From an uncultured delta proteobacterium (GTDB lineage: Bacteria > Desulfobacterota > Binatia > UBA9968), in assembly GCA_963737905.1 (NCBI GenBank), contig CAVTUQ010000002.1, positions 352,001 through 416,000 on the forward strand: 64,000 bases of DNA. The letters run 5' to 3'. The notes beneath the pieces are model-generated. The model made no database searches, was not told the DNA's origin, and saw nothing but the letters and a program-made list of their open reading frames with translations. Every line of letters starts with the position of its first letter. Position 1 is the stretch's first letter. Shown one piece after another: positions 5,315 to 55,504 of this stretch. The translations under genes were made by a program, and so were the position numbers.

Positions 5315-6406
5315 TCAAATCCCGTAGAATCGTCTGGGATTGTCGGAAAGAATTTTTCGTTTGACCTGCGGATCGAGGCCCTCCATCGCTTTGAACCGGG
5401 AAATCGCGTTGAGCTCGCTTGAGGTATCGCCATGGCCGTAGTCGGTACCGATCACGAGATTTTCCTCGCCCGCGTAAGAGATCACATAAGAAAAATCGTC
5501 ATCGGTCTGGGTTGAAACATAGATCCCGTAGTCACGGAAGCAGTTCATCGAGACCGGGTGTTTACCTCCCAGGGAGCGCCGCACGGCTTCGTGAACGACC
5601 CAGGGCACCCATTGGCTCGACGTCTCGATGAAACCCCAGCGCAGCTTCGCGAAGACCCGCGGTATCTCGCTCATGATCAGCGCGTAGCATGCGGTGACTG
5701 TCGGGACTCGAAATGTCGAGAAACCGCCACCGGCTTCGTTGTTCAGCAAATTGAACAGCTCGGGGTTGCCGTTGGCAATGTGCACGGTCACCGGAATGTC
5801 GAGTCGCTCGGCCTCGTCATAGATTGGATAATAAAATGGGTCCGTCATCAGCTTACCCCTTTCGAAGGGGCGCATGCAGACGCCGACGGCGCCATGTTCC
5901 TTGGCGAAGCGCATTTGCGGCGCGGCTTCGGTCGGGGTCAACGCCGGAACGACACAGGTCCAGCGCAAGCGGTTTGCACCGAGCTTCCAGACATCCGCCA
6001 GCCAGCGGTTCCAGCTCCAACAGAGCGCGATCTCCACTTCGGGGCGGCGCGTGAGCGGCCGGAGCCAGAGCGAGTTGTAGAGCACTTGCACATCGATCCC
6101 CAAGGCGTCCATGTGTCTCAGCCGTTGGGTCACATCGCTGAGCTCCCGGGCTTGCACTGAGGTTCCCACTTCCCGGCCGAATCGTTTGACATGCTCTTCA
6201 GACTGCTTGTCGTTGGGGGAGGGAAACTTGGGGCCGAGATCCTCGCCGTCGAGAACCCAATGCTGGCGCTCGGGATTGTCCGGCTCGGCCACTAACGTAG
6301 GGCGATATTTTTCTTCGCCGGCTTCGAGATAATCCCATACGCGCTCGTTCTCTACCACATGCGCGTCCGCGTCAATCACGTCGGTTTTTACATTTGCCGT
6401 TGACAT
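5315..6406 (-). CDS. Amidohydrolase family protein (Amidohydro_2)
   Basis: 'IDADAHV.E', 'MDALGIDVQVLY', 'IPVTVH', 'LRWGFIET', 'GTDYGHGD', 'ILSDNPRRFY'; likely start ATG 6406. Confidence 0.9.
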   Translation of the reverse strand: MSTANVKTDVIDADAHVVENERVWDYLEAGEEKYRPTLVAEPDNPERQHWVLDGEDLGPKFPSPNDKQSEEHVKRFGREVGTSVQARELSDVTQRLRHMDALGIDVQVLYNSLWLRPLTRRPEVEIALCWSWNRWLADVWKLGANRLRWTCVVPALTPTEAAPQMRFAKEHGAVGVCMRPFERGKLMTDPFYYPIYDEAERLDIPVTVHIANGNPELFNLLNNEAGGGFSTFRVPTVTACYALIMSEIPRVFAKLRWGFIETSSQWVPWVVHEAVRRSLGGKHPVSMNCFRDYGIYVSTQTDDDFSYVISYAGEENLVIGTDYGHGDTSSELNAISRFKAMEGLDPQVKRKILSDNPRRFYGI

Positions 6407-6515
6407 CGGATCTCCGTCGTCAAAAGGATTACCCCAACATCGGCTTCGCTGTCTAGAGGTCTGTATTGGGCCAGCATGAATTCCACAGTTTGCGACTTTC
6501 TGATCCCCGATTTTG

Positions 6516-7575
6516 TTAGCTCGCTTCTCCAAGAGTCACGGCCACGTCGTCCTGGCTCACCTCGAACTGTGTGCCAAAGCGGGCGGAGATCTGCTGTATA
6601 TCCTTGACGATCTGTGGAGCCTGGGACGGCTGAAAGAAGTCGGGAGGGCCGTTCCCCTTGTACAGTCCAGGGACAAAGGAGAGACGTTGGAGTTTGCCAT
6701 CGTGAATACGGCAGCGCACCAGCATGGCCAAGAGTATTAGGTTGGGGCGCTTCTGGTAGTGAAGGTCGTGGACAAAGTTGCCCAGCGAGTAGAGTATGGG
6801 CTTGCCCTTATACACCTCAATGGCCTGGAGAACGTGAGAATGATGGCCGGCCACCATGTCTGCGCCGGCGTCGATCGCGAAATGGCCCATCTCTGTCTGG
6901 TATTCCGTAAGCTCGCCGGTTCCACCTGTAGCGGGTGACACACCCCAGTGCCAGGACACAATCACTACGTCCGCTTCTTTTCGTGCTTTGCGAATATCCT
7001 CTTCCAGAGCGGCGCGGTCCGCGCCGCGATCAGGAACAGTGTGGATGATCGGTGGAGAGCCTGGCACATGGTGCACCCGAAGCCGGGGCTCGTAAAAAGT
7101 CTGGACGGAATAGTAGGCAATGCCGCCCCTGTCTTCTGTAGCGGGCGCCGTGATCGGGTCGCACACCGACGCGCGGCAGACGAAAGCGACCTTGGTACCG
7201 TTGCGCTCGATGATGGCGGGCTTTCGTGCTTCGGCGAGATTGCGGCCGCCGCCCCCGCGCACGATGCCAGCCTTATCCAGGACGTCCAGGCAACGCAAAA
7301 AAGGATCTAGGCCGTGCCATGTGCTTGGATTGTTGGCGAGGTTCATGACATTGAAGCCTGCCCGGACGTAGGAGTCGAACATCCACTCATCGGTTCGAGG
7401 GTGGTGGTCGTGGTCATAGGGGCGCGAGATACTTGGCATCAGCCACCACGGTTTCCAGGTTGCAGAAGGCGATGTCTGCGTCTTTGAGCAGATGCCGGGA
7501 AGTAGCGAAGGCGGAATCGGGATCGGGGCGACCCACGAAGGTATCGCCCACCAGCACGATATTGACGTTACTCAC
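6516..7575 (-). CDS. CapA family (poly-gamma-glutamate synthesis-like) metallophosphatase; one frameshift near 7420
   Basis: The upstream frame gives MSNVNIVLVGD...DADIAFCNLET; the downstream ORF has 'LANN', 'DVVIVSWHWG', 'AIDAGADMVAGHHSHVLQ', 'YSLGNF'. One extra G in GGGG (7419-7422) separates the frames; likely a sequencing indel. Confidence 0.85.
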
Positions 7576-11857: not shown

Positions 11858-12616
11858 TTACCCCGCCCGCATCTTCAGTAGCGTCGGAATATCTATTTTC
11901 TCCTGATACGGTCGCAGTTCTTCTTCTCTGCGCTGGACGCCGAGCATGGCCATGCGGTCGGCGAGCTCGTTGCCTTCGGTGCCGACGTGGCCGGCGACGT
12001 GGGTGAGTTTCAGTTCTTCTTCAATGCGCCGGTAGATCGCGTAGCAGTCCTGGATGATTTCCAGGTTCCTGATCTCGCCGCCGGGTTTTTTCCAGCCTTT
12101 CCTTTCCCAGTTGGGTGCCCAACTGCGAATGCAGTTGATGGAGTACGCCGAGTCGCTGCGCACCTCGACGGTGTTGCCAGTCCTGATTTCCGCTTCGGCC
12201 ATGCGCAGTGCGTGATAGAGCGCGTTCAGTTCGGCGGTGTTGTTCGTCCCCATGGGGTTGTAGAGGCCATACCACAGCTCAGCGAGTTTGCCGGCTCGAT
12301 ACACCACGATACCGGAGCCGGCATGGCCAGGGTTGGGGTCACAGGCACCATCGCAATAAATGCTGACATCTAACTGTTGAGAGGGCTGGGCGCCACGGCG
12401 TTCACTGTCCCGCGTGCCGGCTTTTTGTCTACCGGCTTTTTTGGACGGAAGGCTTGCGTAGCCGCCGCGACCAAAGGCTTGCTCGGCTTGTGCACGGGTC
12501 GGGAAGGACTTGAATCGCGCTCCGGCATACTTGTCCACGACCCGCTGAGTGGTCGCCCAATCCGAGAATACACCGGTCTGCCGTCCCGCCCACACCACGT
12601 AAAATTTCCGAGCCAT
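11858..12616 (-). CDS. rnhA: Ribonuclease HI with N-terminal hybrid-binding (caulimovirus viroplasmin-like) domain
   Basis: 'KFYVVWAGRQTGVFSDW...ARFKSF' hybrid-binding domain; 'IYCDGAC..NPG', 'TNNTAEL', 'SDSAY', 'HVAGH.G..GNELADRMA'. Confidence 0.93.
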   Translation of the reverse strand: MARKFYVVWAGRQTGVFSDWATTQRVVDKYAGARFKSFPTRAQAEQAFGRGGYASLPSKKAGRQKAGTRDSERRGAQPSQQLDVSIYCDGACDPNPGHAGSGIVVYRAGKLAELWYGLYNPMGTNNTAELNALYHALRMAEAEIRTGNTVEVRSDSAYSINCIRSWAPNWERKGWKKPGGEIRNLEIIQDCYAIYRRIEEELKLTHVAGHVGTEGNELADRMAMLGVQRREEELRPYQEKIDIPTLLKMRAG

Positions 12617-14301: not shown

Positions 14302-14399
14302 CGTGTAACTTTCTTGATCGCGAGGATTGATGATCCTCGACTATCATTGTTCTCCATATCGATAGAAATATCTACACCTGCAACGGCACCTGCCGGCGC

Positions 14400-15479
14400 T
14401 TAGACCGGACTTGGAATCGGCATGTCGTAAAGTCGCGCGACGTTTTCCCGCACCAGTTTGGCGCGCAACCCAGCGGGTAGATCGCCTAGGTCCCGGGCTA
14501 CGATCTGGCGGGAATGGGGCCAGGTCGAGTTGCCGTGGGGGAAGTCGTTGGACCACATGCAGTTGTCGGCGCCCCACCACGACAGTATGTGGCCGCCGAC
14601 AGCGTCATTAAAGAAAGTGGCATAGACCTGGCCGTGAAAATATTCACTTGGAAGTTTCTTTATGGCGAGACCTTCGCGGTTGATTCCATGGCGCTTGAAG
14701 TAGTAGTCCCACTGTTCGAGTAAAAACGGAATCCAGCCGATCTCGTTTTCGACCAAGACGAGCTTAAGCCGCGGATATCGCTCCAACACGCCGGAGAAGA
14801 TGAGCTCGTAGAGGCTGTTGATGGACTGGAACAATTTCATGTTGACGCTGTTGCTCTCCTGCGTGAGACCGCCTTCGGCAGCAGGGTTAACGCCGAAGCT
14901 GCGGGTACGGCTGTAGCCGTGGCCGCTCAAAATGTGCAGGTTGACAGGCATATCGAGGTCCTGAGCCGATGCCCAGAACTTGTCATAGTGCGCAGAGGCG
15001 AAGGGCAGTTCGGGCGGCGGGACTTGCCATATCACGGAGCCGTGCAGGCCGGCCTTGCGACAGCGCTCCTGCTCTTTGACGGCGCCGTCGATATCGTACA
15101 TAGACAGCATTGCGATGCCGATGAGACGGTCGGGGGCGGCCTGGCAGTAGTCGATCAGCCAATCGTTGTAAACGCGGGCGCAGGCCGCCTCCAGCCCGGG
15201 ATCGTCCAGGCTCAGCGCCTTTAACCCGTGAGTGGGATAGAGAACTTCCGCGCTGACGCCGTCGGCTGCCATTTCAGCGACGCGCTTGGTCTTATCCATG
15301 GCACCGGGCGAATCGGTGGGTCTTTGCCCGCCAAATCCAGGGGCGCGATCCTGAAATGCTTTAGGGAGTTGTTTTTTCCAAAGACCCTCCGGCTCAATGA
15401 CGTGCGAGTCCGACGAGATCAAAACTTCGTCGATGACGACGTTGCTCTCTTTCCCATAGGTTCGTTCAATAATGGCCAT
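14400..15479 (-). CDS. Amidohydrolase family protein (Amidohydro_2)
   Basis: 'ISSDSHVIEP', 'DGVSAEVLYPT', 'PVNLH', 'LVENEIGW', 'WSNDFPH'. Confidence 0.9.
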   Translation of the reverse strand: MAIIERTYGKESNVVIDEVLISSDSHVIEPEGLWKKQLPKAFQDRAPGFGGQRPTDSPGAMDKTKRVAEMAADGVSAEVLYPTHGLKALSLDDPGLEAACARVYNDWLIDYCQAAPDRLIGIAMLSMYDIDGAVKEQERCRKAGLHGSVIWQVPPPELPFASAHYDKFWASAQDLDMPVNLHILSGHGYSRTRSFGVNPAAEGGLTQESNSVNMKLFQSINSLYELIFSGVLERYPRLKLVLVENEIGWIPFLLEQWDYYFKRHGINREGLAIKKLPSEYFHGQVYATFFNDAVGGHILSWWGADNCMWSNDFPHGNSTWPHSRQIVARDLGDLPAGLRAKLVRENVARLYDMPIPSPV

Positions 15480-15533
15480 TGTTTTGGCTCCTTTGTAAGT
15501 TGTGTGAAAACGGCGCGAGCTTTAGTTTCAACC

Positions 15534-16286
15534 TCACAGATACTTTGTCGGACGCCGGATCGTGCGCCACATGTGGGAGGTTGGGCTGTTGTCGAAGCCC
15601 AAGCCCTCAGGCGGCTGTCTGAAGTTACGCCCGACGATGTCGATGAAGGGTTCCCAGCTCACCACCGCGTTGGGGTCGAAGGAGTAGATGTCGTGGACGG
15701 TAATCATGCGCGCTGTCATATACCACTTGTGATCGCGGGCGCGCTTGTACGCTTCTTTGATGTAGTCGTCAGGCTCGTAGTCCGCCCCGAAATGCTTGAC
15801 GTACATTTCCGGATACGAGTAGCCCACCGACTCGTCTGGGAAGAAACGCAGCGCCTGGTGCGCGCGGATCGCCCAGCTTACCTCCTCGTCGACGTAGGGC
15901 TCGACCAGTTGCGCGCCCAGTAACCGTGGTCGCTCTTGATGAAGATTGCATTGGCGATATCGTGCAGCAAGCAGGCGAGAATCGTTTTCTGGGGCATGGA
16001 AGCCTTCAGCGCATGGGTCGCGCTTTGCAGCAGATGATTGATCCCCTTAGCGCGATAATTGAAAAAATCGGCGAGCGTCGGCTTTGCAGGCATTTTCGGC
16101 AGCCGTGGATCGTCGTCCATCAGTTGATACTTGCGGTTTTTGGGGTCGGAACCTCATGTTGGACGCGCCGAGCTTGCCGTCCGCCATATTGAACAGCGCC
16201 GATTTCGAAATGAGTACATCGAGCTCGTCGCTCATTTTTCGCTCGACGGCATCCGCGCGCTCGTCCAGCGATATACTTTTGGCCAT
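15534..16286 (-). CDS. HD-domain protein (PhnZ-like metal ligands); frameshifts near 16135 and 15920
   Basis: Joined frames: 'NHLLQSATHALK', 'ACLLHDIA', 'DHGYWGAQLVEPYV', 'AIRAHQALRF', 'TVHDIYSF'; AGGAGG RBS before ATG 16286. Confidence 0.7.
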
Positions 16287-16761
16287 GGCTTGATCCTCCT
16301 AAAAGAGTCGCCCGACTATCGAGCTTTGCGAAGACTCTACTCCGGCACGGATCGCAGTGCAACACATAAACTCGTCCGGGGAGGACGAGCGCCTCGCGCT
16401 GGAGAAAAATTCGTTTTAAAGAAACATGCCGTTATGTATACGCGAAATAAGCGTCTCCTGCCAAATTAGATTGTACTGGCTTCCATTCCTGATTCGCCTT
16501 AGGTGGATCGCGTTGGTGCGTCAGCAAGTGAGACGTGGAGAGGGAGCTTTTCCTGGATCTGGAGCAAAGGTGAGGTGGCTCGACTAAACCCGAGGCACAT
16601 CAACCTGAGCTCCTCTCCTACCGAAGAGAATATTGCCGAGGTGATTGACAAATAACTTACAATTCAGGCCCAGTCTCTACAACTGAGGTTGAGAGCCGGC
16701 CAGGAATGCCACCACGTCGGCGTCTCGAGGTCGGGAGCGCATCAGAGCTTGACAGGACATT

Positions 16762-19700
16762 TTAGGATGCCGCCTCAGTGGAACCTTCGGCAGGTAAAAA
16801 GCAAGGCAACGAAAATTCAATGCCGGTTTCTTCCGCGTGGCTAAATCCAAATCTTTTCAGGATCGGGGCGTCCGAACCGATGTCACGCTTGAATTCGAAG
16901 TTTAAGCGATAAATTCCATCACCCAATTCACTGAATTCGGCATCTCCGGTTCTGACGAAAATGAACGCTCTGGTACCGTCCTGACTTCTAATAATATTTG
17001 AATCCAGTTCATTGAACCCCGCATTCGAGAAGATCAGTCGCGTGTGCAAGGTTTCATCAGCCGCATCTTTAAGCCTTATCACGGTTCCGGCGGCATCGAG
17101 CGTCCTGGTTTGGTGATCGGCATAAAGATTGACATGCTCATTTTCGTCAGAAGACGTTGGCTCAGAGCCGTTATAAATCCTGATGAGGGTGCCGGCGAGA
17201 TACACGCTGTTTTCAGGGAACCGGTAATACTCTTGGTAAGTTTTCTCTTCACCAGCGGATATCGGTAGATACTCGACCGTGTATCCCGAAAGATCGGTCG
17301 TCACCAGAACTAGAATATCGATCCACTGGTTATTATAAGAAATGTTAATTTCGCGCGGAATGCCAATGTTTTCAACGCTGCCATCGATGATTTTCACGAC
17401 GTGATCAACTTCTTCTATGGCATCACCGCGATTGTCAAACAAGATTTTCAGCTCGGTTCTACTCCAATCCAAAGGCTCGGGGCTTTCCAACAGTAAGCCG
17501 TAGGACTGATGCCGATCATTCATTAAGGCGACCTCGATCCGCTCCGGCAGGGGTCTGGGATTGAGGTCGAACAGCGACATGAGCTGTTCAAATTTAACCG
17601 ATTCGTCCTCCGAATTGGTTAATATTTGCTGCAAAACGTCTGCATCAATTTCGTAATCAGGGTTTTGGATCAGACTAAAATGATTCCAGATTGCGTCCTG
17701 AAACGAGTGGATATGATGCAAAAAGTTCGAATATCTGGAGGTCAAGAACGCAAACTCGTACACGGCGGTATCTCCTGCCATAACATGAGCTCGGTACTGA
17801 GCACGCGGGTTTAGCAACAGGTCCCTTGAAAAAGCAAGGGTCTCTTTGTTTGTCTCAGTTGAGACGCCGGTCATAGTAACGCACCAGCTGTCGTTGAGTA
17901 TGTCCTCGTAACGCGTTTCTTCTCTGGTCAGTGAACGTTCAGGGTTATCGCCCCAGAGGTTAAAAAATTGCAACTCATCACCTGCGGCGTTCAAGACAAG
18001 CAGATTATTGTTATCCAATAGCTTGATGCTGATCGGGAGATCCGCCATCTGATACATCTGATCTATATAGGAATCGTTGTAAACCACCCCAATGTCGTAT
18101 GAACGGTAAATGTAAGACTGTGCCTCATCGGCCGTGGCACCGGCTGGGATGGTGTAGTCGACGTACGCGCCCAGGTCGCTTAACGGCCCATCCAGATCAT
18201 AGCGGGCGATATCGTCTACTTCGGTTTGCGTTGATGCAGGAGGTCCGGGAGGATTGCCGGTCTTGAAGAACATGTATTCGATAAATTCCTGTTCTTGCCA
18301 ACCGCCGCCATTTTTGCGCCTGCTGGCAGCTGTTTTGATCTCTAACCGGTAATACTTGTTCGGCGTAAGAATCTGTGCAGTATGCTTACCCCAATTCTCT
18401 TCCAGACTGTCTTGTAAATGAGTATTCAAGCCGCTGTTGTATTCATAGGTGTCCTGCGCTTCTTCGGTTACTCCACAAACACGGATAATATTAAACCGGC
18501 CCAGCAACAGAAACGAGCGGAAGGGTTCGCCACCGAAACTGAGCGTTACGGGACGAACTTCGTTATCCGGCAGGTCATCCGGTATATCAAATTCGATTTG
18601 CTGGATTTCGGTGTTTTCCCGGTCATACAAGTAGATGCTTCCCTGCGAATTCTTCGACAGATGTACGTCTGCTTTCACTACGTCTTCCGGCATGGTTACC
18701 AAAATATTGGTGGTACCGACCGCGTGATGTACGGGATAGCAGATCTCAATGATTCGAATACCCTGCCCTAGAATTCCTATCTTTCTGATGGGCTCGATGG
18801 CAGATTCCAGCTTATAAACAACGGCACCATTGACTTTACGGCCTTCGGTTGACAGCGCCCGATCTACTACATTGCCATCTTCGTCAAAAGCGTAAAGAAA
18901 TGGATCGGGCGGATCATTCACTATACAGGTAATCCAAACCTGGTGCGGTATGCCTTCAAATGACGCCTTCGGGAAATGGATAAAGACGGGAATAATCCCG
19001 TTATTGAGGTCAAGCGATGATTGATTAATAAACAGTTCAATATTTCTCTTTGAATATTCGTCGGTAAACTTGAGATAGGAGTTATAACCGATACCTGCGG
19101 TGATCAAAACCTCATTGATCACCTTCAGATTAATCTCTCCGGTAATCTCCTGCGCTTTTATGTTCAAGCATTCGATGGTTTGGTAACCATCCGCGTTATT
19201 CAATCCTTTTCGCGTGCCTAACCACGGTGCCAGGTATCCATGGACGACCATGGGGAAAGGAGAAGTAAAAATAAACTCATCCTGCACCAGCGTGGCGTAA
19301 TATTCTCCGATCTCACGGTCTTCAAAGTCTGCACAAATCTCCTCTTCGATGATTTCTCCGGTACAGGGGTAATTGGGATGATAAACGTCCAACAATGCAA
19401 ACCATATGTCATTTTTCTTCCAGCAGCCTGGAGATCTCGAAAGGAGTGGATGCATTCAGAACCAGTTTTGTGTTGACGATTCCGTCCGTATTCGGGACCG
19501 CCTGCCAGCAACCGGTCAGAGCATAATCACCTTGATTGTTTTCCGGCAAATAGTTTTCCCAAGCTCCGTCGTCGACATTTTCGTTCCAAGCGTCACGATA
19601 TTGCAGCGTCACGGTCTTCAGTTCGTACTTGAAGTCGTACTCACCCACACTTTCATAGTCAGTTATGATGGAAGGGTTAGCTCCGACTAGGTTACTATCA

Positions 19701-22370
19701 ATGACCGGCTTGTCGAAATTTAATACAAGGTACACATCCGGGGTTACAACCGGGACCTTCGGAATAGCGGTAGGAACTTCTGCTCCTGAATAGAGTCCGT
19801 CAACATCAATGACGTATTTACTGTATTTGGGTATGTCCCAGTTTTTGGTTACCTTGCGGTGTTCGATACCGAGAGAGAACGAAAGGGGAACCGGGAAACG
19901 TGGCTCATCCGTTTTCTCCCACTTCAATCTAATTGTCGCCTTGGGCTTACCAAGGGGCGTTTTGAGTTGAACTTGTAGATAAGCAAAAATATAGAGCGGC
20001 TTCGGCACTTCGACGGTAACGTTGGCTTCGACAGAAATCCCCAGGCTGACAATGCTCGCGCTGAGTTCCGCATTTCCATAGAGTGTCACGGAACCTCTCG
20101 CCTGAAACGGCATAGCGCTCACTCCCAGTTCGCCACCCATCCAGGCCTCGAGAACGACGCGCAAGATGCCGTACTTCTTATCCAGTCCGTAGCCGATCCA
20201 GGCGCCCATCAGCAGACCTTTGTTGTCCAGCATCAGGTAGGTCTGGGCTGTAAAAAAATTGAGGATATCTGCCCGGATCCTTTTTGATTCCGGTCTGTTC
20301 TCACCCAGGTAGAGATGCCAGCTACTGGGATCGGCGGCGCTAAAATAGGCCTCGGCAGCACCGGCAACATCCAGCAATTCACCGCTATCTTTGGGGAATC
20401 TATAGGATGCAGAGATGTTCATCAGGAATGTTCCGGCTCGGGGGTCAAAGACCGCCAATACCCGCAGGAGAAAATTCTCACTGACCGAAAGGATACCGGC
20501 ATGACCTTCGATCAAGAGCACAGGGCCTGGGATGAGTATGACAAACAACGCTTTGGCTTTTACTGCAAACTTCACATCGGGAAGGGTTCCCACGGTGAGT
20601 CCCGCGCCGAATGCCATGGCGTCTTTTTGTTTGATCGACTTGCCGGTAGAGGCTGGCATCAGTTAGATCGGGTCGATTGGCTGCATCCTCATAGTCAATG
20701 AGCGCCTGATAGTCGAGAGTCATATTCTGACCGTATAAACCGGCCAAACCATATAGTCCGAGAACGGGCGGCCCCAGCGGGATGCCGACGGGAAGGTCGA
20801 GGCCAACAGCGATGTAGAAGTAATTAAAATCGGGCTGTTTACCGGTTATGAACTGAGCATCCACTCCCAAATTGACCGGGATCAGATTCAGGTTTACGCC
20901 ACCACGGAATTCCTTGATGTATTCGGGTTCTTCTTCGTCAATGAAATAAACCGATCCGTCAAAAGTGAGCACATTTTTGATCTCGAACTGGAGATAAACG
21001 CCGCCAATCTTAAGCTTGAACTCCCCATCCCCAGCCCACATGATCTTGAGTCCTTCCACACCACCGCGTAAAGGAAGCGATTCGATAATCTGAATCCCGC
21101 CTGAGAAACCAATCCATTTGAACAGCTTGCCCTCCAGCTCGTCGCTGCCGAATCCCAACTTGGCGATCTCCACTTTAAAGCCATGGAAGTCCAGAGCTTT
21201 CTGGTCAGGTAACTCTATCCACCCCCCCTCGACTCTAACTGTTCCATCCGAACCGATTGTTAATCCTTTCAATTCGAAAGACGGCCAGTCGAGTCCGGCA
21301 AGCAAGGGTGTTACTTTGCCCGTAAGCTTGAACGCATACTCATTTCCTTCCTTGATGAATTCGACGCTGCTAACTTCGATGGAGACGACATTGTCTTTTT
21401 CCAGTACCAGCAATCCGTCGTTTGAAGCGAGAGTGACGGTAAAGTTGCCGTCGTTAATCAATCCAACTTCGACTTCCAGCGCTTCTTCGAAGAATGGCAG
21501 CTGGAGGAAGCCGGCGATGTTTCCCAAGACGATTGTGTTTTGTTTCAATTCGATCCCAACGCTTGTGGTTCGGAATTGAAATCCAAAAATATCGCCGGAC
21601 TTCTCATCGAAGGGGTTTTCGGGATCATCCGGCGTCCAATTGCCCGTAACCCTGCCGCAGAAGCCCCCGGAGCCGATGAAGAAATCTTCGAGCGTCACAT
21701 CGTCGGGCACAATACCCTTTAGCCCCTCGGGAAAGTGGATGATGCCATGCTCACGAAACTCGGCGGGCCAATCGGACGAAAAACCCTGGCAGTGCTCGCT
21801 CTTCTCGCAGAAAGGATTAGCTTAAGAGCAGTCACTTCATATAATGATACCGGTATCGCCTATCATGAACGGTTGAATCGTCAACGCAGGCGCGCCATCC
21901 GCAAACGTGAAAGCAAACTCGCCGTCGGAATTGAAACTTACCTCCGCGCCGTTAATGGCAATTTCGATAGGTGGCGGCTCTCCCGTGACAGGATCCGGTG
22001 GTGCTTCCACATAGTTGCCATCAAGCTTCTCCATCCGTTCGAACAACTCAGTTGAGACTCGCAACGCGACAGACAGGTTGCTAAGGGTAACGTCGAACCG
22101 GTCTCCGAAGTAACCAAATTCGAATTGAAACTCGGTATAATCGCCAGTGCTCAGCCAAGCCAATGACAGACCCGTTATCAATGGGAGATCAAATTCAATA
22201 CTCTCGAGTATCTGGAGGGTACCCTTTGCGACAAGGAGCTCGGAGCCCAAGGCAGTCGTTTCAAACTCTGGTAGTCCGATCGAATCGATTTGAGCTGGGA
22301 CGCCTAAGACGTTGCTCGGCCAGCCGGGCAGGAGAAATTTGACAGGCACAAAGTGGATCAGATCAGCCAC
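16762..22370 (-). CDS. Giant (~1870 aa reconstructed) beta-strand-rich hypothetical protein with a DUF6603-like central region; several frameshifts
   Basis: Overlapping same-strand ORFs 21837..22370, 20478..21710, 19409..20659 and 16762..19455 read through with small indels. Amphipathic beta strands 'FYIAVGLDLPVGIPLG...GLYGLAGLYG.NM', 'FGAGLTVGTLPD', 'ILIPGPVLLIEG', 'WHLYLG' resemble DUF6603-type proteins from memory. Confidence 0.65.
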
Positions 22371-22479
22371 TGACGTATCCTATTTTCAAGAACCCCATAA
22401 ACTTCTGCGTCGATACTACCGCTTGTCAAGAATTGCCAGCCATCCCAGATGAATCCTGTTCGAATAATCGGAGTTCATG

Positions 22480-24411
22480 TTAACGCACCTGGTCGGCATA
22501 ACGATTGTAGATTCTCGCCTGTTCCACGGAAATCAGTCTTCCTCGGTTAGGGGATTTCCCAGGAGCCATCAGATTGCCGCATAGTCGGTGATCGCCGTTG
22601 GTGCAGGTATCATGGGCGAAGTGCTCGGCGCCGCCAGTACAAAAAAAATCTCGTGCATCGCCGATGAAACTCAGACTTATCCAATGTCCCAACTCATGCA
22701 CCACCGTTTCCGCAACCGAAAAAAGATCCCCCTCATAGGAAGGATCAACCGCGGCGACGTTTACAAAATTGACTCGCCATAACTGGCCTAAGTCAGGCTT
22801 GGGATGAAAGGATTCACCCAACAATGTTCCTTCCTCCCGCAATTCCCAGCTAAAGACGAAATTACAATCTCCATACTCCGGAGTATCCGTAATATGCTTA
22901 TGCACTTTGTCCAATCCATAGCTCCAGACAGTGCCGGCTTCAAGCACCTCTCCCAGGTCGTCTTCGAAGGGGAGCGGATGCAGGACAACACCGTTTTCTT
23001 CAACTGGAGCGATATATACGTTGGCTTGCCTTCCAAGGATGTAATTGGCTATTTCAACCACTTGGCGAAGCTGAGCGTCGTTGATATTCGCCGTCCGAAA
23101 GTTGTCTGACAGTTGATGAAATCGGATCGGAATCTGCTTGAATTCCAAGAAGACCAGATTGAGTCTCATAATATCAATTGAAGCCCCAGTGTCCGGGTCG
23201 AGTGTGGTGACCGTTACGATGAGCTCATCCGGACTCATCGGTGTTGCCTGAAAGCTAATAAGTTCCTCCGTATCTGACAAGGACATCTGCTCAACTAGCA
23301 CGTGAGCAGAGTCAAAACCTGCCACCGTTAGAGGCGTGGGTAGGGGCTTTAGCAATCGCAAACCCGTGATCCCATAATCCACCGGAAGTGCGGTACCATT
23401 GACGTCGGAGGACGGAAGCTTTTGAATGACAAGCGCAGCTGGATGCTGGTCCGGATCAATCGCAATCGAGTGATAAGGAGGAGTTTCGCTAAACGGAAAG
23501 GGCAGCTGTTGTAACTGCAATTTGTATCGTCCCGAAAACGGTGACCCTTCTAGAAAGACATAGTCTACATAGGTAGCCTCCACGGGAAAACCAGTAAGAA
23601 GAGAAATCATGGGATGACCCTCATGATCTGGCAATCGTGTTCGATAGGTAAAAAAAGTCTTGACAGCTTCTTCGTTTTCAGCCCAACCGTCGAGGTCAAA
23701 AAATAGGCTCAGTCTCTGTGGTGCCGTAACGTTGGACGTGTCAGCCCTGGTCGTACCCAGGACTGCGCCACCCTGTACAATAATAGTGGCTTCTGGGTAC
23801 TCCAGAAATAAATCGTCATAATACGCATCCGTCCAAGACTTGGAGCCCGTGTACGTGTGTCCGGTGACTGATTTGTGAAGATCATCAAAGAAATTAACAT
23901 CATGAAAGGTTTCGATCTGTGTTTTCAGTGATGCTTGGTCAAGATCGAGGTTCAGATAGACGGCTTTTGTTAAAAAGGGTGCGAACTCAGGGTGAAAACT
24001 TCGCCAATAACTACGCGAGGATGGCAATGGCTCAAGGACGATTATGTCTTCATCCGGTACCGCAGAACCAAGTAAGTAGGGATAAGACTGGCCGCGTCTA
24101 AGGTAATACAGATAACCGCTGGTAAGCGCATAAACCGTCTGAGGTTGGTCTGTAGAGACCGTAAATCGGTATTCCGTAAAGGTATCGCTACCGAATAGAC
24201 GAGGCACGACCGTTAATTGCATCTGCTCGAGTTTCGACTTGTAGTAAGCCGAGGTGACTGAGTAATAGTTGTTGCTGTTGGCGGTCGAATCGGGTTCCAC
24301 CATCGGCATCGTATCGTAGCCACGTCGATCGCCGGAAGCTTCTTGCCTCAAAGGAGGGTATGCTAGTCGATTATCGTCAGATACAAGAAAAAGTAAGAAA
24401 GGTAGCGACAT
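22480..24411 (-). CDS. Hypothetical protein with C-terminal zinc-metalloprotease (metzincin-like) domain
   Basis: Intact 643 aa ORF, GAGG RBS; 'ETVVHELGHW' HExxH motif, further His residues and an 'NLM' Met-turn-like motif near the C-terminus. Confidence 0.7.
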   Translation of the reverse strand: MSLPFLLFLVSDDNRLAYPPLRQEASGDRRGYDTMPMVEPDSTANSNNYYSVTSAYYKSKLEQMQLTVVPRLFGSDTFTEYRFTVSTDQPQTVYALTSGYLYYLRRGQSYPYLLGSAVPDEDIIVLEPLPSSRSYWRSFHPEFAPFLTKAVYLNLDLDQASLKTQIETFHDVNFFDDLHKSVTGHTYTGSKSWTDAYYDDLFLEYPEATIIVQGGAVLGTTRADTSNVTAPQRLSLFFDLDGWAENEEAVKTFFTYRTRLPDHEGHPMISLLTGFPVEATYVDYVFLEGSPFSGRYKLQLQQLPFPFSETPPYHSIAIDPDQHPAALVIQKLPSSDVNGTALPVDYGITGLRLLKPLPTPLTVAGFDSAHVLVEQMSLSDTEELISFQATPMSPDELIVTVTTLDPDTGASIDIMRLNLVFLEFKQIPIRFHQLSDNFRTANINDAQLRQVVEIANYILGRQANVYIAPVEENGVVLHPLPFEDDLGEVLEAGTVWSYGLDKVHKHITDTPEYGDCNFVFSWELREEGTLLGESFHPKPDLGQLWRVNFVNVAAVDPSYEGDLFSVAETVVHELGHWISLSFIGDARDFFCTGGAEHFAHDTCTNGDHRLCGNLMAPGKSPNRGRLISVEQARIYNRYADQVR

Positions 24412-24425
24412 TGTCTTTCCTCTAT

Positions 24426-27400
24426 TTATTGGGCAGGACCAATGACAATCGAAGAGTCTGTTTTCGAAGTAAGTCCGCTATAGGATTTCGATTTTGCCGT
24501 GTACGTGTAAGTGCGATTTTGAAGCAGCGTTGGATCGAGAAAATACCTTTTATCTTCAACGTCGAGCGGTGAGCCCGATATCCAATCGCCACCGCGGGAC
24601 GAGATGATCAACCCGGCGAGCTTCAGAAGTGTTCTACCAGATAACTGGCTAGCCATACAAGCCTTATGGCTGGTAGCGGATTAGTCGCTCCTGTCAGGTC
24701 CGCATCCCACTCATATACCGTACCGTCGTCGTCCACATAGACCCACCCCGAATTTTCTTCATCCCACACCGGCGGTTCCGGCGGCGTGCAGATCATAGCT
24801 GCGATGGTGCCCGGCTGAATCTCGACCCGAGTTGCTTGCCGTGCATCCAGCCCTGCCGCGCCCAATCCGTAATAGTACGGTAGCCTTGGTAGGACGATGT
24901 TATCGATGAATTCAAACTGCTTCTGAGGCAAGGGGTCTGTAACTTCTACGGTATAAGTATCTATATCATTAGCCTTAAGTAGCTCCATCCGGCGCCAGTC
25001 TTTGGCTTTCTTCTTGTCCGGCGATCGAAAAGCAATAACTCGATATCCCGCCCGGGATTCTTCGCCCACTTGATCGTAATCCGGTTTTCTCTCCTGAAAT
25101 AGAGGTGATGACCGGTTCGGGTGGCACTGCGGTTTTCGGAATCTCAACCGGAGGCGTCGACAAACTTAAGACGCTTTGCAAGCCGTTCGTGTCCACCGCT
25201 TTTATTGCATAGAAATAGCGGTTGCTGCTTTGTCCATTCAGAGTTTGATCAACATATAACAATATGTTCGCGGGGTCAGGCGTATAGACCGGTCCCCGCA
25301 CCGGGTCGGGAATCTCAGTAATTCGGTCTTCATATAGAGGATCTTCTTCCTGTATGGCCTCTTCGTTTATCTTGGTGAACGCATTTACGTTGTCCGGCAG
25401 GCTGGCCAGTATTTGCAATTGACCGGGATCAAGCGCTGCGTAATGCGAAGCGATTAGTTTTGGATCTGTTTCATACGGAATATCCTCGATCACATCGACA
25501 TCTGCCGGATCAAAGTTCGAGTAGTTGTTTTTGAACTGCTCGTAGACGGTGAGATTCCGGATCGGCCGTAATGCGTTGTCTACACGAAACAAGGTCTCAT
25601 CTAATGCGCGGAAGACGTGGTACGTCACGCCGGTATTTGTTTTTCTCCAGCGGAGAGCAAATGATGACTTGCCGTGAACATTGGCTCGCGTGGCTTTTAA
25701 GGTTTGAATCGGTGTATCCGGCAATGGCGCAAAAACCGCGGGAGCAGCAGGCTTTTCGCGGTAAACCGCCATAATCGTCGAGGCTGTGGAAACACTGCCG
25801 AGCACATCACCGACAAAAGAGTTGACGCCGATCTGGGCATATCTCACTTTGTTGACGTCAGTGGCCTCTATGACCGGATTCGGAAAATCCGGATCTTCGA
25901 TGTAGACGCTATAGTTATCTCTGGAATCTTTCGGCTCTTGATGAGTGATGCGATTATCCGTCCAGCGCTCCGGGTTTTTGTAGTTGATGAAAAATTCTTT
26001 GTCGGGAGTAACAGCGATGCCGAAGCCTTTGCCTTTCAAAGGAACATCGGCCAGTTTCAATACCCAAAGCGAGGGCTCTGACTCACCGTCGTTTTTCAGA
26101 ATCAAAAAGCTGTGATTTCCCTGGGTGATCCAGCACAAGCGGAAAGCGTTTTAAGAAGGATGTCTCTTTCTCTATTTCCTCTCGTTATGGGAATCGGTTC
26201 ATGCAACGGAGGCGGATATACGTCCAGCGAAATCCGGTATCTATAAACCGGAATATCTTCGGGCGTTTCCTCAAGTAGCGCATACTTCTCAAGTTCTCTC
26301 CGGCTGAGGTTCAGGCTCGTTTTTGTCAGAACTCTTTCGACCGGCTCAGTCACAATCATGCCGGTATAGGTATTTAACCATCCCTGCTTGAAGTAAACAT
26401 TGAAACCTTCCACGTCGGGGGCCTGGAGCCGTAAATTTTCCGGCCATTTCCAACGGACGACAATGGCATTTTTTCTGTTCGCTCGAAGCCAGGCTTTGTC
26501 AACGTTGTTAATCGTAGAGTCGGCACACGAGTCTTCCGAAGGATTATATGTGCCATACTCGAGGAATTGAGCCGCAACATCGATAGGGGGAGGCGGTCTA
26601 GGAGGGGTCAACTCATACGTTTCAAACTCGTTGAACTCACTTTGCCGGCCAAAAAGGTCAATGGCAGCAATTCGGTACTGGTTCACGGTTCCTATTGTAA
26701 TCGCATCCGTATAATACTGCCGCTCATTGGGCCATCCGATGGGAATGTTGCGCTCGCTACTTTCTGTGACCGTAGGGTCGACAAAGCCCGTGAATGTTGT
26801 GCCGCAACAGCTGCCGGCGTTACCTGTTTGCGCTCGATGTGATATAAAATCGGTGCTATAGAAATCAGCTCCTTCTCCGGGTCTTCGTTCACATCCCATC
26901 TTAATCCGGCAAGATAGGGGTTTTCGGTAACATTTCCATCCTGATCCGTAACCGTGCCGCCGGCGAGAAACGATGCTGTTAACCCGGTAGGCGGTGTGAG
27001 GGGCAAGTGTGTATGTTTAAATACGCCGCATATTATGTAGTCTTGCAGTCCCACCGGATAGGGATCGAAATCGTAATGGATGCGGCAAAGAATTGCATGG
27101 GATGCATGGATGTTGATGTAGTCAATTTGCTCCGCCCGCAGGCGCAACATACCCCGTTCCAGGGATAGAACTTGCCGATCCACCCAAGCTGAAAAAAGAT
27201 GTTTGTAGGCTTCTACGACAACTTGGTTCCCCGCCGTGAAATCGGGGTTTACCATTACCAGTTGCACCTCTGTGACCGGTTTTAAGAAATTGATGACGAC
27301 GGGTAGGTTTTCCGTTGTGACGTCCAAGCCCAGCTCGGTTCTGAAAAGCGGATAGGCTGATTCGACGATCTGGGGTTGTCTTGGGGCATAAAGAACAACG

Positions 27401-28492
27401 TGGTCGTCCAGCTTGCTTATGAGAAAGAAGGTCTGCCCGATTTCGTAATCATCGAATGTGATTTCATGATCGAGCCTTCGTTTGTTCCATTCAGGCCAAT
27501 CTGAGGTTATCTTGTAATCATAATAAGCATCGTTATCCGTATCCTTGTCCACGAAATACAAATCCAGCACTCTGGCAAAAAATACGTGTAAACTCTGAGC
27601 CAGAAGAAAATCGTACTTGGAGAGCTCCATCGTTTCATCGCTAGCCTCATCATCGTTGGGGAACAGCGTCCAGCCAACGGGCACACAGTGCCACCATTGT
27701 CCATGTAACCAAAGACGCTTTCAGTTCGAGGAACCCTGCCGCCGTTATGGGGCTATTCGCCACCCTCAGATAGCCCAGCCTGCACAGAGCGGTTGCCAGA
27801 TCTCTGCCTATGATTGATGGATAAACATCGTTTACATAATCCGTTCCTTCCTGATTGACGGGTAAACCGCATCCGCAAAGCTGGTTGATCCGCTCCCAAG
27901 GTCCCTTCTCTACACAAGTCCAACCTGCGAGGTGTACCAGCTTAATAGCGGCTCCGCGCAGCACGATTCCGGTTGCATTTGGGGCGTCAAACGAAATGTT
28001 TTGTAAGCCTGTGACAGTACCCTGAACATCATAGGGGTAAAAGGCGGCGTCTTCCGAAAGCGCCTTGATTTTGAATTCGGAGTTCCGTTCAAGTAAGAAT
28101 CTCAGTTCTATCCTTGAAACAGCCTTTGAAAAAAGGAAGGTAATTTCTCCGTCTATAGGAATGACTCCAACCGTAGAACCATCCTCCAGGGTCTCGTACT
28201 GAAGCCCAATTGAATCAACCTCCTGTTCATCAATTTTTGCCGAAACAATCTTGAATTCGAAAACCGTATTCTGATGTAGTTGAAACGTATAAGGGATAGG
28301 CAGCACTTGCACACCTGCCCTGGCGACCGGGAAGACATATTTGTTGTTGAGATCGCTCTCCCGCCGATAAAGCTTGAAGCAATCGGGAAAGCCGAGTTTA
28401 TCATTGAACGACCAGCGCAGATGGATTCCTTCTTCAACTCCATCCAATCCTTTCGTACCAAAACCAATCATTTTCAGATATTGCATTTTCAT
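24426..28492 (-). CDS. Large (~1350 aa reconstructed) hypothetical protein with several fibronectin-III-like segments; at least five frameshifts
   Basis: Chain of overlapping ORFs 27650..28492, 26692..27684, 26102..26899, 24975..26138, 24623..25147, 24426..24656; FN3-like motifs 'GIHLRWSF...LYRR', 'PPTGLTA...LRW', 'YRIAAIDLFGRQS', 'YFYAIKAVDTNGLQS', 'YTYTAKSKSYSGLTS'. Confidence 0.65.
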
Positions 28493-29156
28493 TGATCGCG
28501 CCTACTCCGATTCACGACTTGCCGACACTTCTGTACTTTGTCTATGTAAGGCGTTTGTATCCTCAAAGCTTGCAACCAATCAAGGGAATGTATCTATATT
28601 CCTGCTTGAATCTTGTGTACTTTGCCGCGGCTAGTTCCTAGCTGAGGATTTTTTATTTTGGCACTGTTCACTTCTTCTGGACGAGATGAGTATACGAGTA
28701 GTGGAACAGGTTGGACCAACCGTAACGGCGGCACAGACAATTTTTAAGTGCCACCGCCTCGGCGCGTGCCGATAGGTCGGCACACTCTCTTTCGTCACGA
28801 CATCCTCAATCCCAAATCGATCTAGTCGCCTTCTTGAACCCTACTCCTTGCAGTCACTCTTTCAACGTCGATATCCTGGCATCAGTCGTGGGCTTACAGG
28901 ATTAGAAATTAGAGAGGAATCCAATAAAGATCAGAATTTTAGGGTTAGCAGTGTCGGTTTTGACGTGAACAATGCCCCGCCCCTGTGGGGGCATCAAATG
29001 TAAAGAAGCGTTAGAACCACGCGCTCCAGTCCCCGCCTCCTGTTGGCTCACGCCAGGTAGATCCGCGTATCCCGCGAATTGCCGGTTTGGTGTTTGTGCC
29101 GTGGTCGCCATCATCGCACACGTTTCTCCTTTCTCAATCCTCCCGCCCCGCCGTCA

Positions 29157-29924
29157 CTAATTAACCTTCGTCGGCCGATAAAACTCGATCGCGTTTTTGT
29201 AGAAAACATTGGCTGCCTGTTCTTCTCCCAATGTCTCCAGAACCAGCGTGTAATCGTCATCTTGATAGGGCCTCGGCGCCCGGGTGGACGGTAGGTCGGT
29301 ACCGAACATGAGCGCCCGCGAATTGGCCGCGTAGAGGTCAGTCAGCGCGGAGCGGACGTCAAAGTCTACTCGTCCAAAGCCGGTGGCTTTGACCCGTACA
29401 CCCTTTGCCGCGAGTTTGAGCAGCGTTGGGAAACCCGCTTTGGATAGACCGAGATGGTCGATGCTGACTGCCGGCAACGACACCAGGGTCTCATAGAGAT
29501 CGGCCAGCTCCGCCGAATCCACATACAACTCGGTGTGCCAGCCGACCAGTTCATGAACGCGCCGCGCCATGCTTTCCAGATGATGAATCTCTTCCGAGCC
29601 GCCGCGCTTGACGTTGAAACGGACGGCGCGAACCCCTGCGCTGTTGAGTACTTTCAACTCTTGATCCGAAACGGTCTGCGGCACCTGGGTGACACCGACA
29701 AAGGTCGGCCCAAGCACTTTCAAAGCATGGAATAGATAAGACTGATCGAAAGCCTGAAAAGAGCCGGACACCACAGCCCCACCGCATAGATCGACCACTT
29801 TCAAGCGCTCTAAATAATCCTCGCAAGTAAACGGATCGGGCATGAATCCTTGATTGGGCACGACGGGAAAGTTCTTGTCGATGATATGAAAATGGCAATC
29901 AAAATATTTGGCTTTCTGTTTCAA
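29157..29924 (-). CDS. Amidohydrolase, 2-pyrone-4,6-dicarboxylate lactonase-like
   Basis: 'FDCHFHI', 'AGVRAVRFN', 'SIDHLG', 'VKATGFGR', 'LMFGTDLP'. Confidence 0.85.
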   Translation of the reverse strand: MKQKAKYFDCHFHIIDKNFPVVPNQGFMPDPFTCEDYLERLKVVDLCGGAVVSGSFQAFDQSYLFHALKVLGPTFVGVTQVPQTVSDQELKVLNSAGVRAVRFNVKRGGSEEIHHLESMARRVHELVGWHTELYVDSAELADLYETLVSLPAVSIDHLGLSKAGFPTLLKLAAKGVRVKATGFGRVDFDVRSALTDLYAANSRALMFGTDLPSTRAPRPYQDDDYTLVLETLGEEQAANVFYKNAIEFYRPTKVN

Positions 29925-51558: not shown

Positions 51559-51806
51559 AGAAAATGATCGGGGTTACTAGCCCGGATTCTTTACGAAATG
51601 CCCGCGGAGCAACCCTCTCCTGTCGCGGGCAATGGGCCTGCACCTTGAGGAGGCCTGCGAGCTTGGGTGGTGAGGAAGAAGCGGAAGCTCATGGCCATAC
51701 ATTTGAGAAGTCAGGGCAGCTCTACGTTCCTGTGTCCGCCCGCTCCGAGGTCTACCGTGTGTTGTGGCTTTTCGTCGAACATGAATATTTCGATCTCAAT
51801 ACAGAC

Positions 51807-52843
51807 TCAGGTCTCGACGGTCGCTCTCGCGCCGTTGGCGCGAAGGGATCGTTCGCCCGCTTCGAGAACAGCAAGCACTCGCAGAGCAAAGCTTCCGTTG
51901 GATAACGGCGCTCGGTCATCCAATATGCTTTCCAAAAAATCCTTCACAGCGTCCGCCAAAGGCTCTTGATCTTTAAATCCCTCTATCTCGCGTCCCACCA
52001 GCATCTTCGAGGGTATCGTGGTCGGGAGTTCATCGGCGAGCGGCTTGCCAACCGGTGAATTCTCCACTCGATATTCGTGAACCGTGATCGATCGTTTTTC
52101 AAACTTCCCCTCATAGACGACCAATCGTTTGCTGCCGATGACGGTCAGTTTTGCCGTACTCTCCGGATACAGCCAATTATGGTAGACAAAGGCGGAAGTT
52201 TTGTCCGCCATTTCAATCGCAGCCACGCTAAGATCTTCCAGATGGGGCTGCAGGTACCGTGATAACCATGCAGACTAACACTGGTGGGCCGGCTCGATAA
52301 GAGATGCAAAACAATCGAAGCATCGTGCGGCGCCGAATTCCACCACACGTTGGAGTCGCGCTTGATCCGCCCAAGGCTCAGCCGCTGTAAAAAGAGGTGA
52401 TAAATATCGCCCAGGTCTCCTGAACGGATCATTTCTCGAATCATCGTCACGGCTGGATCGTAAAGAAAGGTGTGATCTACGAACAGCACAGTTCTCTTGG
52501 CTCGCGCCAACTGTACCAGCTCACGACCCTCCTCCAATCGCAGCGCTAAAGGCTTCTCCACCCACACATGTTTTCCCGCGGCCAAGGCTCTCTTCGCCAA
52601 CGAAAAGTGGGTCGCCGGTGGAGTCGCGATGATTACCGCGTCAAGATGCGAATCAGCGAGAACCGCCTCCAAAGAGACAGCGATGGGAAGGTCGGGGAAC
52701 TTCCCTTGAATCTCTGCGCGATTCTCGGCATGAATGTCGCAAACCACGCGCACGAGCGCTTGTGGCGCGGCTAAAAACTTTGGCAACAGCTTTTGTCCCC
52801 AATAACCGGCACCCACGAGAGCTACGTTCACTCTGTCGCCCAC
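51807..52843 (-). CDS. Gfo/Idh/MocA oxidoreductase (sugar-nucleotide dehydrogenase-like); frameshift near 52255
   Basis: 'VGAGYWG', 'GKHVWVEKPLA', 'APHD', continuing in ORF 51807..52226 ('NWLYP', 'EPL...V..F'). Confidence 0.85.
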
Positions 52844-52847
52844 CCGA

Positions 52848-53735: not shown

Positions 53736-53745
53736 CGAGTCGCAA

Positions 53746-54855: not shown

Positions 54856-55125
54856 TGTCTCGTGAGGCAGCTTCTTCTCAGACAGACCTAACTTGTTCAT
54901 AGCAGACCTTGCAGTCAGATTTTGAAAAACGACCATAGGCTTCTAAATTCAGTGATGCGATCGAGCGAAACGACAAGTCACCCCTCTTTCGTGAAAGAGA
55001 ACGTGTTGTATGGAGCCTTGAAAATGTCTCCAGACGAATAACCCCAACGTGACTTGTGACGGCCAACAAGGACTTATGCTGGCACGCCCGTTGACGCACG
55101 AACCCAAAACTCGAAAGAAGAAATC

Positions 55126-55452: not shown

Positions 55453-55504
55453 ATGTGCAGGGAGTATATTTGAATTCACTCACCTGTCAAGACGTCGGGA
55501 TGGT

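Follow-up and report, generated by a model that had tools for sequence, protein, structure and literature searches.

A recurrent three-gene cassette of two giant proteins and an exchangeable middle gene, with a broken copy in an uncultured Binatia genome

Results

Three co-oriented genes lie in an AT-richer island

We analyzed a 64,000-nucleotide stretch of DNA (the window) from an uncultured delta proteobacterium (GTDB lineage Desulfobacterota; Binatia; UBA9968), positions 352,001 to 416,000 of contig CAVTUQ010000002.1 in assembly GCA_963737905.1, and studied three neighboring genes on its minus strand. Gene A (24426-28492, ~1350 amino acids (aa) when intact) encodes an FN3-like giant, gene B (22480-24411, intact, 643 aa) a smaller protein of the HExxH class, and gene C (16762-22370, ~1860 aa when intact) a DUF6603 giant. 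The first-pass annotation had collapsed eleven fragmentary open reading frames (ORFs), all on the minus strand, into these three genes: six for A (27650-28492, 26692-27684, 26102-26899, 24975-26138, 24623-25147, and 24426-24656), one for B, and four for C (21837-22370, 20478-21710, 19409-20659, and 16762-19455). Both tblastn and frame-aware protein-to-DNA alignment bear this out, as intact homologues align collinearly over the fragments. Gene A is 80% identical to the intact 1350-aa protein P0006 over 1334 aligned residues; gene C is 58% identical to the 1854-aa P0067 and 62% identical to the 1866-aa gene of locus L002, with ~1830-1850 residues aligned.

Gene A ends 14 nucleotides (nt) before B, and B ends 109 nt before C, in agreement with the gaps of 14 and ~110 bp given before. 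They sit in a 13.5-kb island (15522-29048, no strand assigned) with a GC content of 49.6%, compared with 54.6% in the remainder of the window, and the description of the products as acidic also held, with Asp plus Glu at ~13% versus 7-9.5% for Lys plus Arg in P0006, P0067, and P0001.

The giant proteins A and C belong to large families without a named function

Our searches found 61 longer homologues of A, most of 1200-1380 aa and all named hypothetical. The FN3 signal in A was weak. The FN3 family (PF00041) gave P0006 20.4 bits (E 6e-4), under the curated 25-bit cut-off, and no match to P0012, another A homologue; precomputed annotation places PF00041 in 4 of the 61 listed homologues. Read by eye, the A consensus shows repeated patterns of the form W ... 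Y.hYR ... Y.Y.A.D..GN.S. In loci L016, L017, and L022, A carries at residues ~120-595 an insert of 130-220 aa that matches family C proteins (C residues ~1105-1340), including the C protein of the same locus in L016 and L022. This common insert is probably a PF06439-type lectin-like domain.

The DUF6603 match (PF20248) of C lies at 20703-21074 on the minus strand (E 7e-4, window fragment). At 18.7 bits, the window's broken fragment falls below the curated cut-off of 27 bits; the intact homologues P0067 (32.6 bits), P0071 (38.1 bits), and P0131 (44.1 bits) all exceed it, in support of the earlier label, and we count the window's C in the family because of its 58-62% identity to the P0067 and L002 proteins. 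DUF6603 is a family of unknown function whose name, given by NCBI to some C homologues as "DUF6603 domain-containing protein," is uninformative on the role of C, and the Pfam match spans ~190 of the ~1860 residues. The C family comprises 513 representative clusters at E <=1e-3, 124 of them at <=1e-30; a second search returned 215 proteins, 1019-3245 aa long. A Pro-Gly-Pro segment that is conserved and hydrophobic (20504-20548, minus strand) reaches a Kyte-Doolittle average of at least 1.8 over 19 residues in 137 of 189 homologues and lies near residue 600-630 in the eight homologues examined. The C-terminal half varies in length. By our own count of precomputed labels, it carries PF06439 in 38 of 120 listed C homologues, often with PF05735, PF13385, or PF21708; one of the 120 has the encapsulin-type domain PF04454.

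A crude heuristic flagged a signal-like N terminus in two of the 52 A homologues and two of the 189 C homologues, and in none of the 19 middle proteins, consistent with the earlier statement that no clear signal peptide is present.

Gene B belongs to a rare putative HExxH class

Only four other proteins in a collection of 5.8 billion are relatives of B; further members of its class come from loci L003 (two copies), L006, and L034 (two copies). Residues 572-615 of B (22567-22698, minus strand) form a putative zinc site with a Met-turn (HELGH, His-597, His-600, and Met-615), and His-572, Glu-573, His-576, His-597, His-600, and Met-615 are invariant in 7 of 7 members. Peptidase_M43 was the only family match of the class, with E values of 0.17 (window) and 0.0094 (L003a) and scores of 12.2 and 16.3 bits, below the 23-bit cut-off, and comparison with the PDB sequences gave no match. 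The motif named in the earlier reading of B as an HExxH protease is conserved, as are two further histidines and a methionine; for a place in a known peptidase family, this sub-threshold match is a hint.

Two tandem, diverged HExxH genes (33-37% identical) stand between A and C in L003 (12520-16535) and in L034 (14028-18217). The spacing of locus tags (E3K36_04465 to E3K36_04480) suggests a tandem arrangement in a Candidatus Brocadia genome as well.

A, a variable middle gene, and C recur together across phyla

We fetched 50 loci (29 from genomes, 20 from metagenomes, and one from a Mycetohabitans plasmid; L010/L011, L042/L043, and L048/L051 are near-duplicate pairs) and annotated them with our own profiles. 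Both A and C were present in all 33 loci of sufficient reach; the other 17 of the 50 stop at the end of the record. The middle gene, here called the slot gene X, directly follows A in 27 of the 27 loci where both were called. The co-occurrence of the two giant genes with a variable middle gene, proposed in the first-pass annotation as a check, therefore holds. Its picture of two giants flanking the middle gene applies to most of the 33 loci, which have the order A-X-C; in nine the order is C-A-X, so that the fixed adjacency is that of A followed by the enzyme gene. Loci with C before A form a distant clade. Intergenic gaps range from -31 to +109 nt, and no fourth conserved gene was found: only A, X, and C recur across the flanks of the loci.

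The 150 flanking ORFs encode mostly housekeeping proteins, with a few integrases, transposases, and HipA proteins, in a Pfam tally of the 25 most frequent of 149 families. Defense-type matches among them were to AriAB, ThsB-like, GajB-like, and AbiLi models (one ORF each) and to HipA_C (two ORFs).

Carriers were found in Bacteroidota, Pseudomonadota, Acidobacteriota, Thermodesulfobacteriota, Nitrospinota, Bacillota, Actinomycetota, Chloroflexota, and others, Candidatus Brocadia being among them; the cassette is spread over at least 10 bacterial phyla and one haloarchaeon. In the latter, the Haloferax mediterranei plasmid pHME322 encodes a C-like protein (E 1.7e-79), then an A-like protein (E 1.1e-23), and then a 1142-aa Baseplate_J protein (50.5 bits); the 18-19 kb to each side of this trio contain no other annotated tail or contractile injection gene. 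A halocin-H4 gene (L060 41151-42230) is located ~10 kb downstream of the same cassette.

The slot holds non-homologous proteins

Counted by locus, the slot holds a phospholipase D (PLD) class in 13 loci, the HExxH class in four (the window included), the L002 class in four, the CL4 class in five, and a beta-helix class in three. The remaining occupants are a singleton in L007, a 158-aa ORF in L042, and the baseplate-J protein of Haloferax. Pfam recognized PLDc/PLDc_2 in seven and Beta_helix in two of 17 middle proteins and nothing in the other eight. In the PLD class, PLDc_2 and PLDc scored above their cut-offs and the His, Lys, and Asp of both HKD motifs were invariant, each in 7 of 7 proteins, which places the class in the phospholipase D superfamily. 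The beta-helix class consists of right-handed beta-helix proteins, and at least two slot classes have no recognizable fold. Compared over their full length, the HExxH and PLD profiles show no relationship (hhalign probability 0.1%). These results support the variable middle gene that the first-pass annotation had put forward for testing.

A quick maximum-likelihood tree of the C core shows the slot classes interspersed: 12 changes are needed, compared with a minimum of seven, the PLD class must occupy five or more separate places, and different classes occur within sister pairs. In L042 (7660-18417; near-duplicate L043), the slot holds the 158-aa ORF only, a short stretch of which resembles the C terminus of a beta-helix slot protein, and A is longer (1624 aa); this arrangement may be a degenerate or fused variant.

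Four slot classes share an N-terminal domain

Profile-profile comparison (hhalign) of the first 170-230 residues of the slot proteins revealed a common N-terminal domain of ~90 aa in four classes: the long PLD proteins, CL4, beta-helix, and HExxH. The long PLD and CL4 profiles matched with P 9.5e-7 (probability 91%), the beta-helix profile matched PLD plus CL4 with P 4.8e-7 (92.5%), and the HExxH profile matched PLD plus CL4 plus beta-helix with P 8e-6 (84%). In this last comparison, the domain maps to residues 90-174 of B (23890-24144, minus strand). Reversed-sequence controls gave P >=0.09 in 8 of 8 cases (5 of 5 for the HExxH comparison). The domain model also matched an ORF directly after A in L015 that was not part of its training set (E 7e-4), and it matched no A or C protein. 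The Haloferax baseplate-J protein gave no significant match to the domain or to the other slot classes.

No described system covers the three genes

Apart from DUF6603, the weak FN3 signal, and the sub-threshold M43 match, Pfam offered no explanation of A, B, or C. P0006, P0067, and P0001 matched 0 families of PADLOC-DB 2.0 (2023), and NCBIfam and PHROGs hold no model for A, B, or C. The PLD domain of the L008 slot protein matched DrmC (best E 5e-11) and MkoB models. With A, the C core, and the HExxH, L002, and CL4 classes, sequence and profile searches of the PDB gave no significant result; matches to pentatricopeptide entries were rejected, as they covered ~20 residues of designer repeats. 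In hhalign comparisons of A and C with seven larger proteins of a cluster resembling the extracellular contractile injection systems (eCIS), the probability was <=1%. That eCIS-like gene row, found in the genome that also carries L017 (L061, G043:C82:1-20000), includes a 1154-aa Baseplate_J protein, and it is unlike A and C.

The earlier statement that no hallmark of phages, type VI secretion systems (T6SS), contractile injection systems, Tc toxins, or Rhs proteins is present thus agrees with the Pfam and PHROGs results for A, B, C, and their conserved neighbors, and the defense and eCIS screens that it called for were negative for all three genes (PADLOC) and for A and C (eCIS). In the literature, searched outside subscription journals and supplementary files, neither DUF6603 nor PF20248 is mentioned, nor is any of five locus tags or accessions; nothing connects pHME322 with a baseplate, and papers on Mycetohabitans and phospholipase D were unrelated. 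Within these searches, the cassette is rare and undescribed. Its homologues are syntenic elsewhere, and the locus maps to no described system.

The island is a probable insertion, and the cassette is horizontally mobile

In the same-genus genome G001 (contig C451), the sequences that flank the island in the window (14385-15521 on one side and from 29049 on the other) are separated by 2.4 kb, and a search of 40 related genomes with an 897-aa C fragment gave no match (0 of 40; counts over relatives take in the unpublished genome G006, and no claim depends on G006 alone). As judged from this empty site and the lack of C in the relatives, the island is an insertion in the window genome, or a loss in G001. 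Neither direct repeats nor a tRNA gene was found at its ends, and promoter and terminator scans returned consensus-level sites only. The window genome, assembled in 46 contigs, holds one copy of the cassette.

Six plasmid records matched the cassette (four from Mycetohabitans and two from Haloferax); most loci are chromosomal or on a replicon of unspecified type. The Mycetohabitans plasmid copy has insertion sequence (IS) elements on its flanks and two toxin-antitoxin pairs nearby. A gammaproteobacterium, a Chloroflexia genome, and an Agromyces, from three phyla, fall into one tight clade of the C-core tree. Because C is missing from the 40 relatives, the site is empty in G001, one clade crosses three phyla, and the Mycetohabitans copy is flanked by IS elements, the locus is one copy of a self-contained, horizontally mobile three-gene cassette made of A, an exchangeable X, and C.

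Genes A and C are broken in the window copy

The first-pass count of eleven ORFs was correct, and the breaks are more numerous than that number implies. Gene A contains at least eight indels of 1-2 nt and gene C contains four, at least 12 together. Frame changes in A lie near 27686, 26800, 26151, 25090, 25031, and 24650, with a short compensated out-of-frame patch at ~24790-24841. Those in C lie near 21838, 21755, 20648, and 19414; the indels at 21838 and 21755 bracket a 25-codon patch, which explains why in-frame stops seem to separate the first two C ORFs. No corrected segment of A or C contains a nonsense codon; each such segment is a single, fully open frame.

Several indels fall where one base is repeated four to six times in a row; the island is as dense in homopolymers as the genome. 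The breaks are a regional feature. Also within the island, an HD-like gene (15537-16298, minus strand; the label comes from a reading of the sequence by eye and from no family search) is frameshifted at two places, as found by DNA alignment to its orthologues in G001 (contig C375) and G004 (contig C738). Ten long window genes outside the island span their Pfam models end to end, and, relative to G001, uncompensated indels are absent from ~4.3 kb of coding DNA in the flanks. An intact paralogue of the HD-like gene, 86% identical, lies on the same contig (C2:567422-568270).

One public run, X1, shares 7% of sampled words with the locus and is the only such run; RNA data sharing words with the locus were absent from the public runs listed. 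Its reads gave eight short contigs on the locus at depth 2-3.3, none of which spans an ORF-breaking indel, and contigs this thin may be wrong. One of them has two extra bases at 24841/24843, inside the compensated patch of A, and three substitutions within 20 nt (24841-24861); another, at 17962, has one base fewer in a six-base homopolymer run within the open part of C.

We lean, by a small measure, toward consensus error confined to a strain-variable island as the source of the breaks, because they are indels only, include no nonsense codons, and are restricted to a strain-variable insertion of a 46-contig assembly. Real decay, which we put at somewhat below even odds, is kept open by the intact B and by the one short-read contig with a frame-breaking homopolymer difference. 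With A and C interrupted by at least 12 indels, the window's own copy of the cassette may be non-working.

Other genes of the window

Three Amidohydro_2 paralogues are present in the window (5315-6532, 14400-15479, and 29157-29924), two of which directly flank the island. A glycosylation cluster at 47955-57244 encodes two PMT_2-type glycosyltransferases, an asparagine synthase, a GT2 enzyme, a DegT aminotransferase, and a GFO/IDH/MocA oxidoreductase. An RNase H1 gene with an N-terminal hybrid-binding (Cauli_VI) domain lies at 11858-12616 on the minus strand.

Discussion

A proposed scaffold that carries an exchangeable enzyme

We propose that the cassette encodes a two-scaffold complex, built in the cytoplasm, that carries an exchangeable envelope-attacking enzyme, and we give this reading a probability of about 0.4. 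A and C would assemble into a large scaffold, in the cytoplasm because none of the three proteins has a signal peptide. The common N-terminal domain would dock X onto this A/C scaffold, C and A would bind a target surface with their variable lectin-like and FN3 modules, and the complex would be released, probably by lysis, after which the enzyme would attack the lipid, protein, or polysaccharide of another cell's envelope. The kinds of enzyme found in the slot, the lectin-like, FN3, and carbohydrate-binding (CBM) modules, the lack of export signals, and the baseplate-J occupant in Haloferax are what lead us to the scaffold, the docking, and the action outside the cell. Particles released by lysis also lack export signals. 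In function, the whole would parallel Tc toxins or a tail-less baseplate-tailspike module, with homology to neither.

Tc (ABC) toxins consist of TcA, TcB, and TcC, with the hallmark domains VRP1, the pore, a neuraminidase-like domain, SpvB, and an RHS-repeat cocoon. Like them, the cassette has three adjacent large genes without signal peptides whose products are presumed to assemble in the cytoplasm; one component holds a variable enzyme, and the largest protein has variable binding modules. Unlike them, it shows no VRP1, TcA-pore, SpvB, or RHS-repeat family in the window fragments, P0006, P0012, P0067, P0071, P0131, and the 17 slot proteins, no sequence homology was found, and its enzyme is a separate gene product with an N-terminal domain of its own instead of the C-terminal tip of an RHS cocoon. 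Tailspikes of phages and eCIS offer the principle of a conserved N-terminal anchor with an exchangeable catalytic part, which in one of our classes is a beta-helix; baseplates of these systems resemble the cassette in the lack of signal peptides and in the Baseplate_J protein of the Haloferax slot. The cassette differs from them in that no sheath, tube, spike, or gp25 gene occurs at any locus and no PHROG matches. Polymorphic toxins such as Rhs and contact-dependent inhibition (CDI) proteins likewise combine a common N-terminal domain with swapped C-terminal enzymes (here in four classes), and the tandem effectors of L003 and L034 and the exchange of effectors between close relatives are of the same kind. 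In contrast to those toxins, the slot proteins have no known trafficking domain, no neighboring immunity gene, and no linked secretion system, and two giant partners are invariably present. DISARM, with its PLD protein DrmC, resembles the cassette in its patchy mobile distribution, in the domain-level similarity of the PLD proteins, and in the replacement of effectors; modular defense of this type differs in that A, B, and C match no PADLOC or NCBIfam model and Pfam found no helicase, methylase, or NTPase domain in A or C.

Several observations weigh against the proposed envelope-attacking complex. An antibacterial toxin usually needs an immunity gene, and none follows X: the next gene, at -31 to +109 nt, is C, or an unrelated gene in the C-A-X loci, and no small conserved ORF is present. 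The short PLD proteins of five loci lack the N-terminal domain, the L002 class (four loci) matched it at control level (best P 0.035), and the L007 protein matched significantly neither the domain nor the other slot classes. No lysis cassette or secretion gene was found conserved beside the cassette, although single cases may escape a tally of 25 of the 149 families, and phage records and viral contigs yielded no copy. Comparisons of A and C with eCIS proteins, PHROGs, and PDB sequences showed no similarity, and the lectin-like labels on C are precomputed Pfam assignments, which we rechecked for P0131 only. Finally, the patchy transfer, the swapping of effectors, the DrmC-like PLD domain, and the neighboring toxin-antitoxin pairs and IS elements fit defense too.

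Alternative explanations

An anti-phage system of the abortive-infection type is the main rival, one that we consider possible but on balance unlikely. In this view, the two giant proteins would act in the cytoplasm as sensors or scaffolds and keep a swappable effector, such as a PLD nuclease or lipase or a metalloprotease, inactive until infection. A patchy, horizontally transferred distribution, a slot filled with non-homologous enzymes and lacking an immunity gene, the match of the PLD domain to DrmC models, the absence of signal peptides, the surroundings of the Mycetohabitans copy, and the handful of defense-type matches among the flanking ORFs would all be accounted for. Such a role is harder to reconcile with the silence of PADLOC, with the lack of any Pfam NTPase, helicase, methylase, or nucleic-acid-binding domain in A and C, with flanks that are mostly housekeeping and form no consistent defense island, and with the baseplate-J protein in the Haloferax slot. 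To our knowledge, FN3, CBM, and concanavalin-like lectin modules and a beta-helix effector are also unusual in intracellular defense. It is rather improbable that the cassette encodes some other intracellular complex, such as a giant cage or scaffold by which the cell sequesters or controls a hydrolase that remodels or turns over its own envelope. The missing export signal, the tight coupling of the three genes, slot enzymes that act on lipid, protein, or polysaccharide, and the single encapsulin-type domain in the C family suit that idea, but the absence from 40 of 40 relatives, transfer across phyla, and frequent replacement of the enzyme fit a housekeeping role poorly, and the lectin-like modules suggest an external ligand.

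We also weighed whether the cassette is a divergent member of a described machine (Tc, an eCIS or T6SS baseplate, Rhs, or another polymorphic toxin) beyond recognition by sequence. Its overall logic, which is like that of the Tc and tailspike systems, and the Baseplate_J protein in Haloferax speak for this; the absence of any Tc, RHS, sheath, tube, gp25, VgrG, or PAAR family from A, B, C, and the conserved neighbors, together with the negligible hhalign probabilities against eCIS-like proteins, makes it distinctly improbable in our estimate. That there is no system at all, and that three unrelated hypothetical neighbors are decaying side by side, would agree with the many breaks in the window's A and C. 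This explanation is refuted by the synteny counts, as 33 other loci, from many phyla and an archaeon, have the trio intact and in synteny, and the catalytic residues are conserved; we consider it scarcely credible.

Significance

Beyond the proposed complex itself, the cassette might represent a new class of effector-carrying particle present in Bacteria and Archaea, in which two giant beta-sandwich-rich proteins (an FN3-array protein and a DUF6603 protein) would form a tail-less scaffold like a baseplate or fiber, interchangeable enzymes (PLD, metzincin-like protease, beta-helix, and others) would be presented by a common N-terminal docking domain, and exchangeable lectin-like modules would bind the targets, all without a sheath, a tube, an Rhs cocoon, or a dedicated secretion system. 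We advance this wider idea tentatively and think it doubtful as it stands. For the window genome, the implication is smaller: the island is probably a recent insertion, and the giant genes are either decaying or badly assembled.

For the family, the cassette is built from two protein families without a known function, and C alone accounts for hundreds of representative clusters. The exchangeable slot and the common N-terminal domain provide a direct handle for finding new effector enzymes. Cultured carriers exist, namely Haloferax mediterranei, Paenibacillus mendelii, Desulfosporosinus orientis, Agromyces cavernae, and Microvirga, and the role of the cassette is therefore testable. If it is a working machine, it would be a new way to package and aim enzymes, whether against other cells or against phages.

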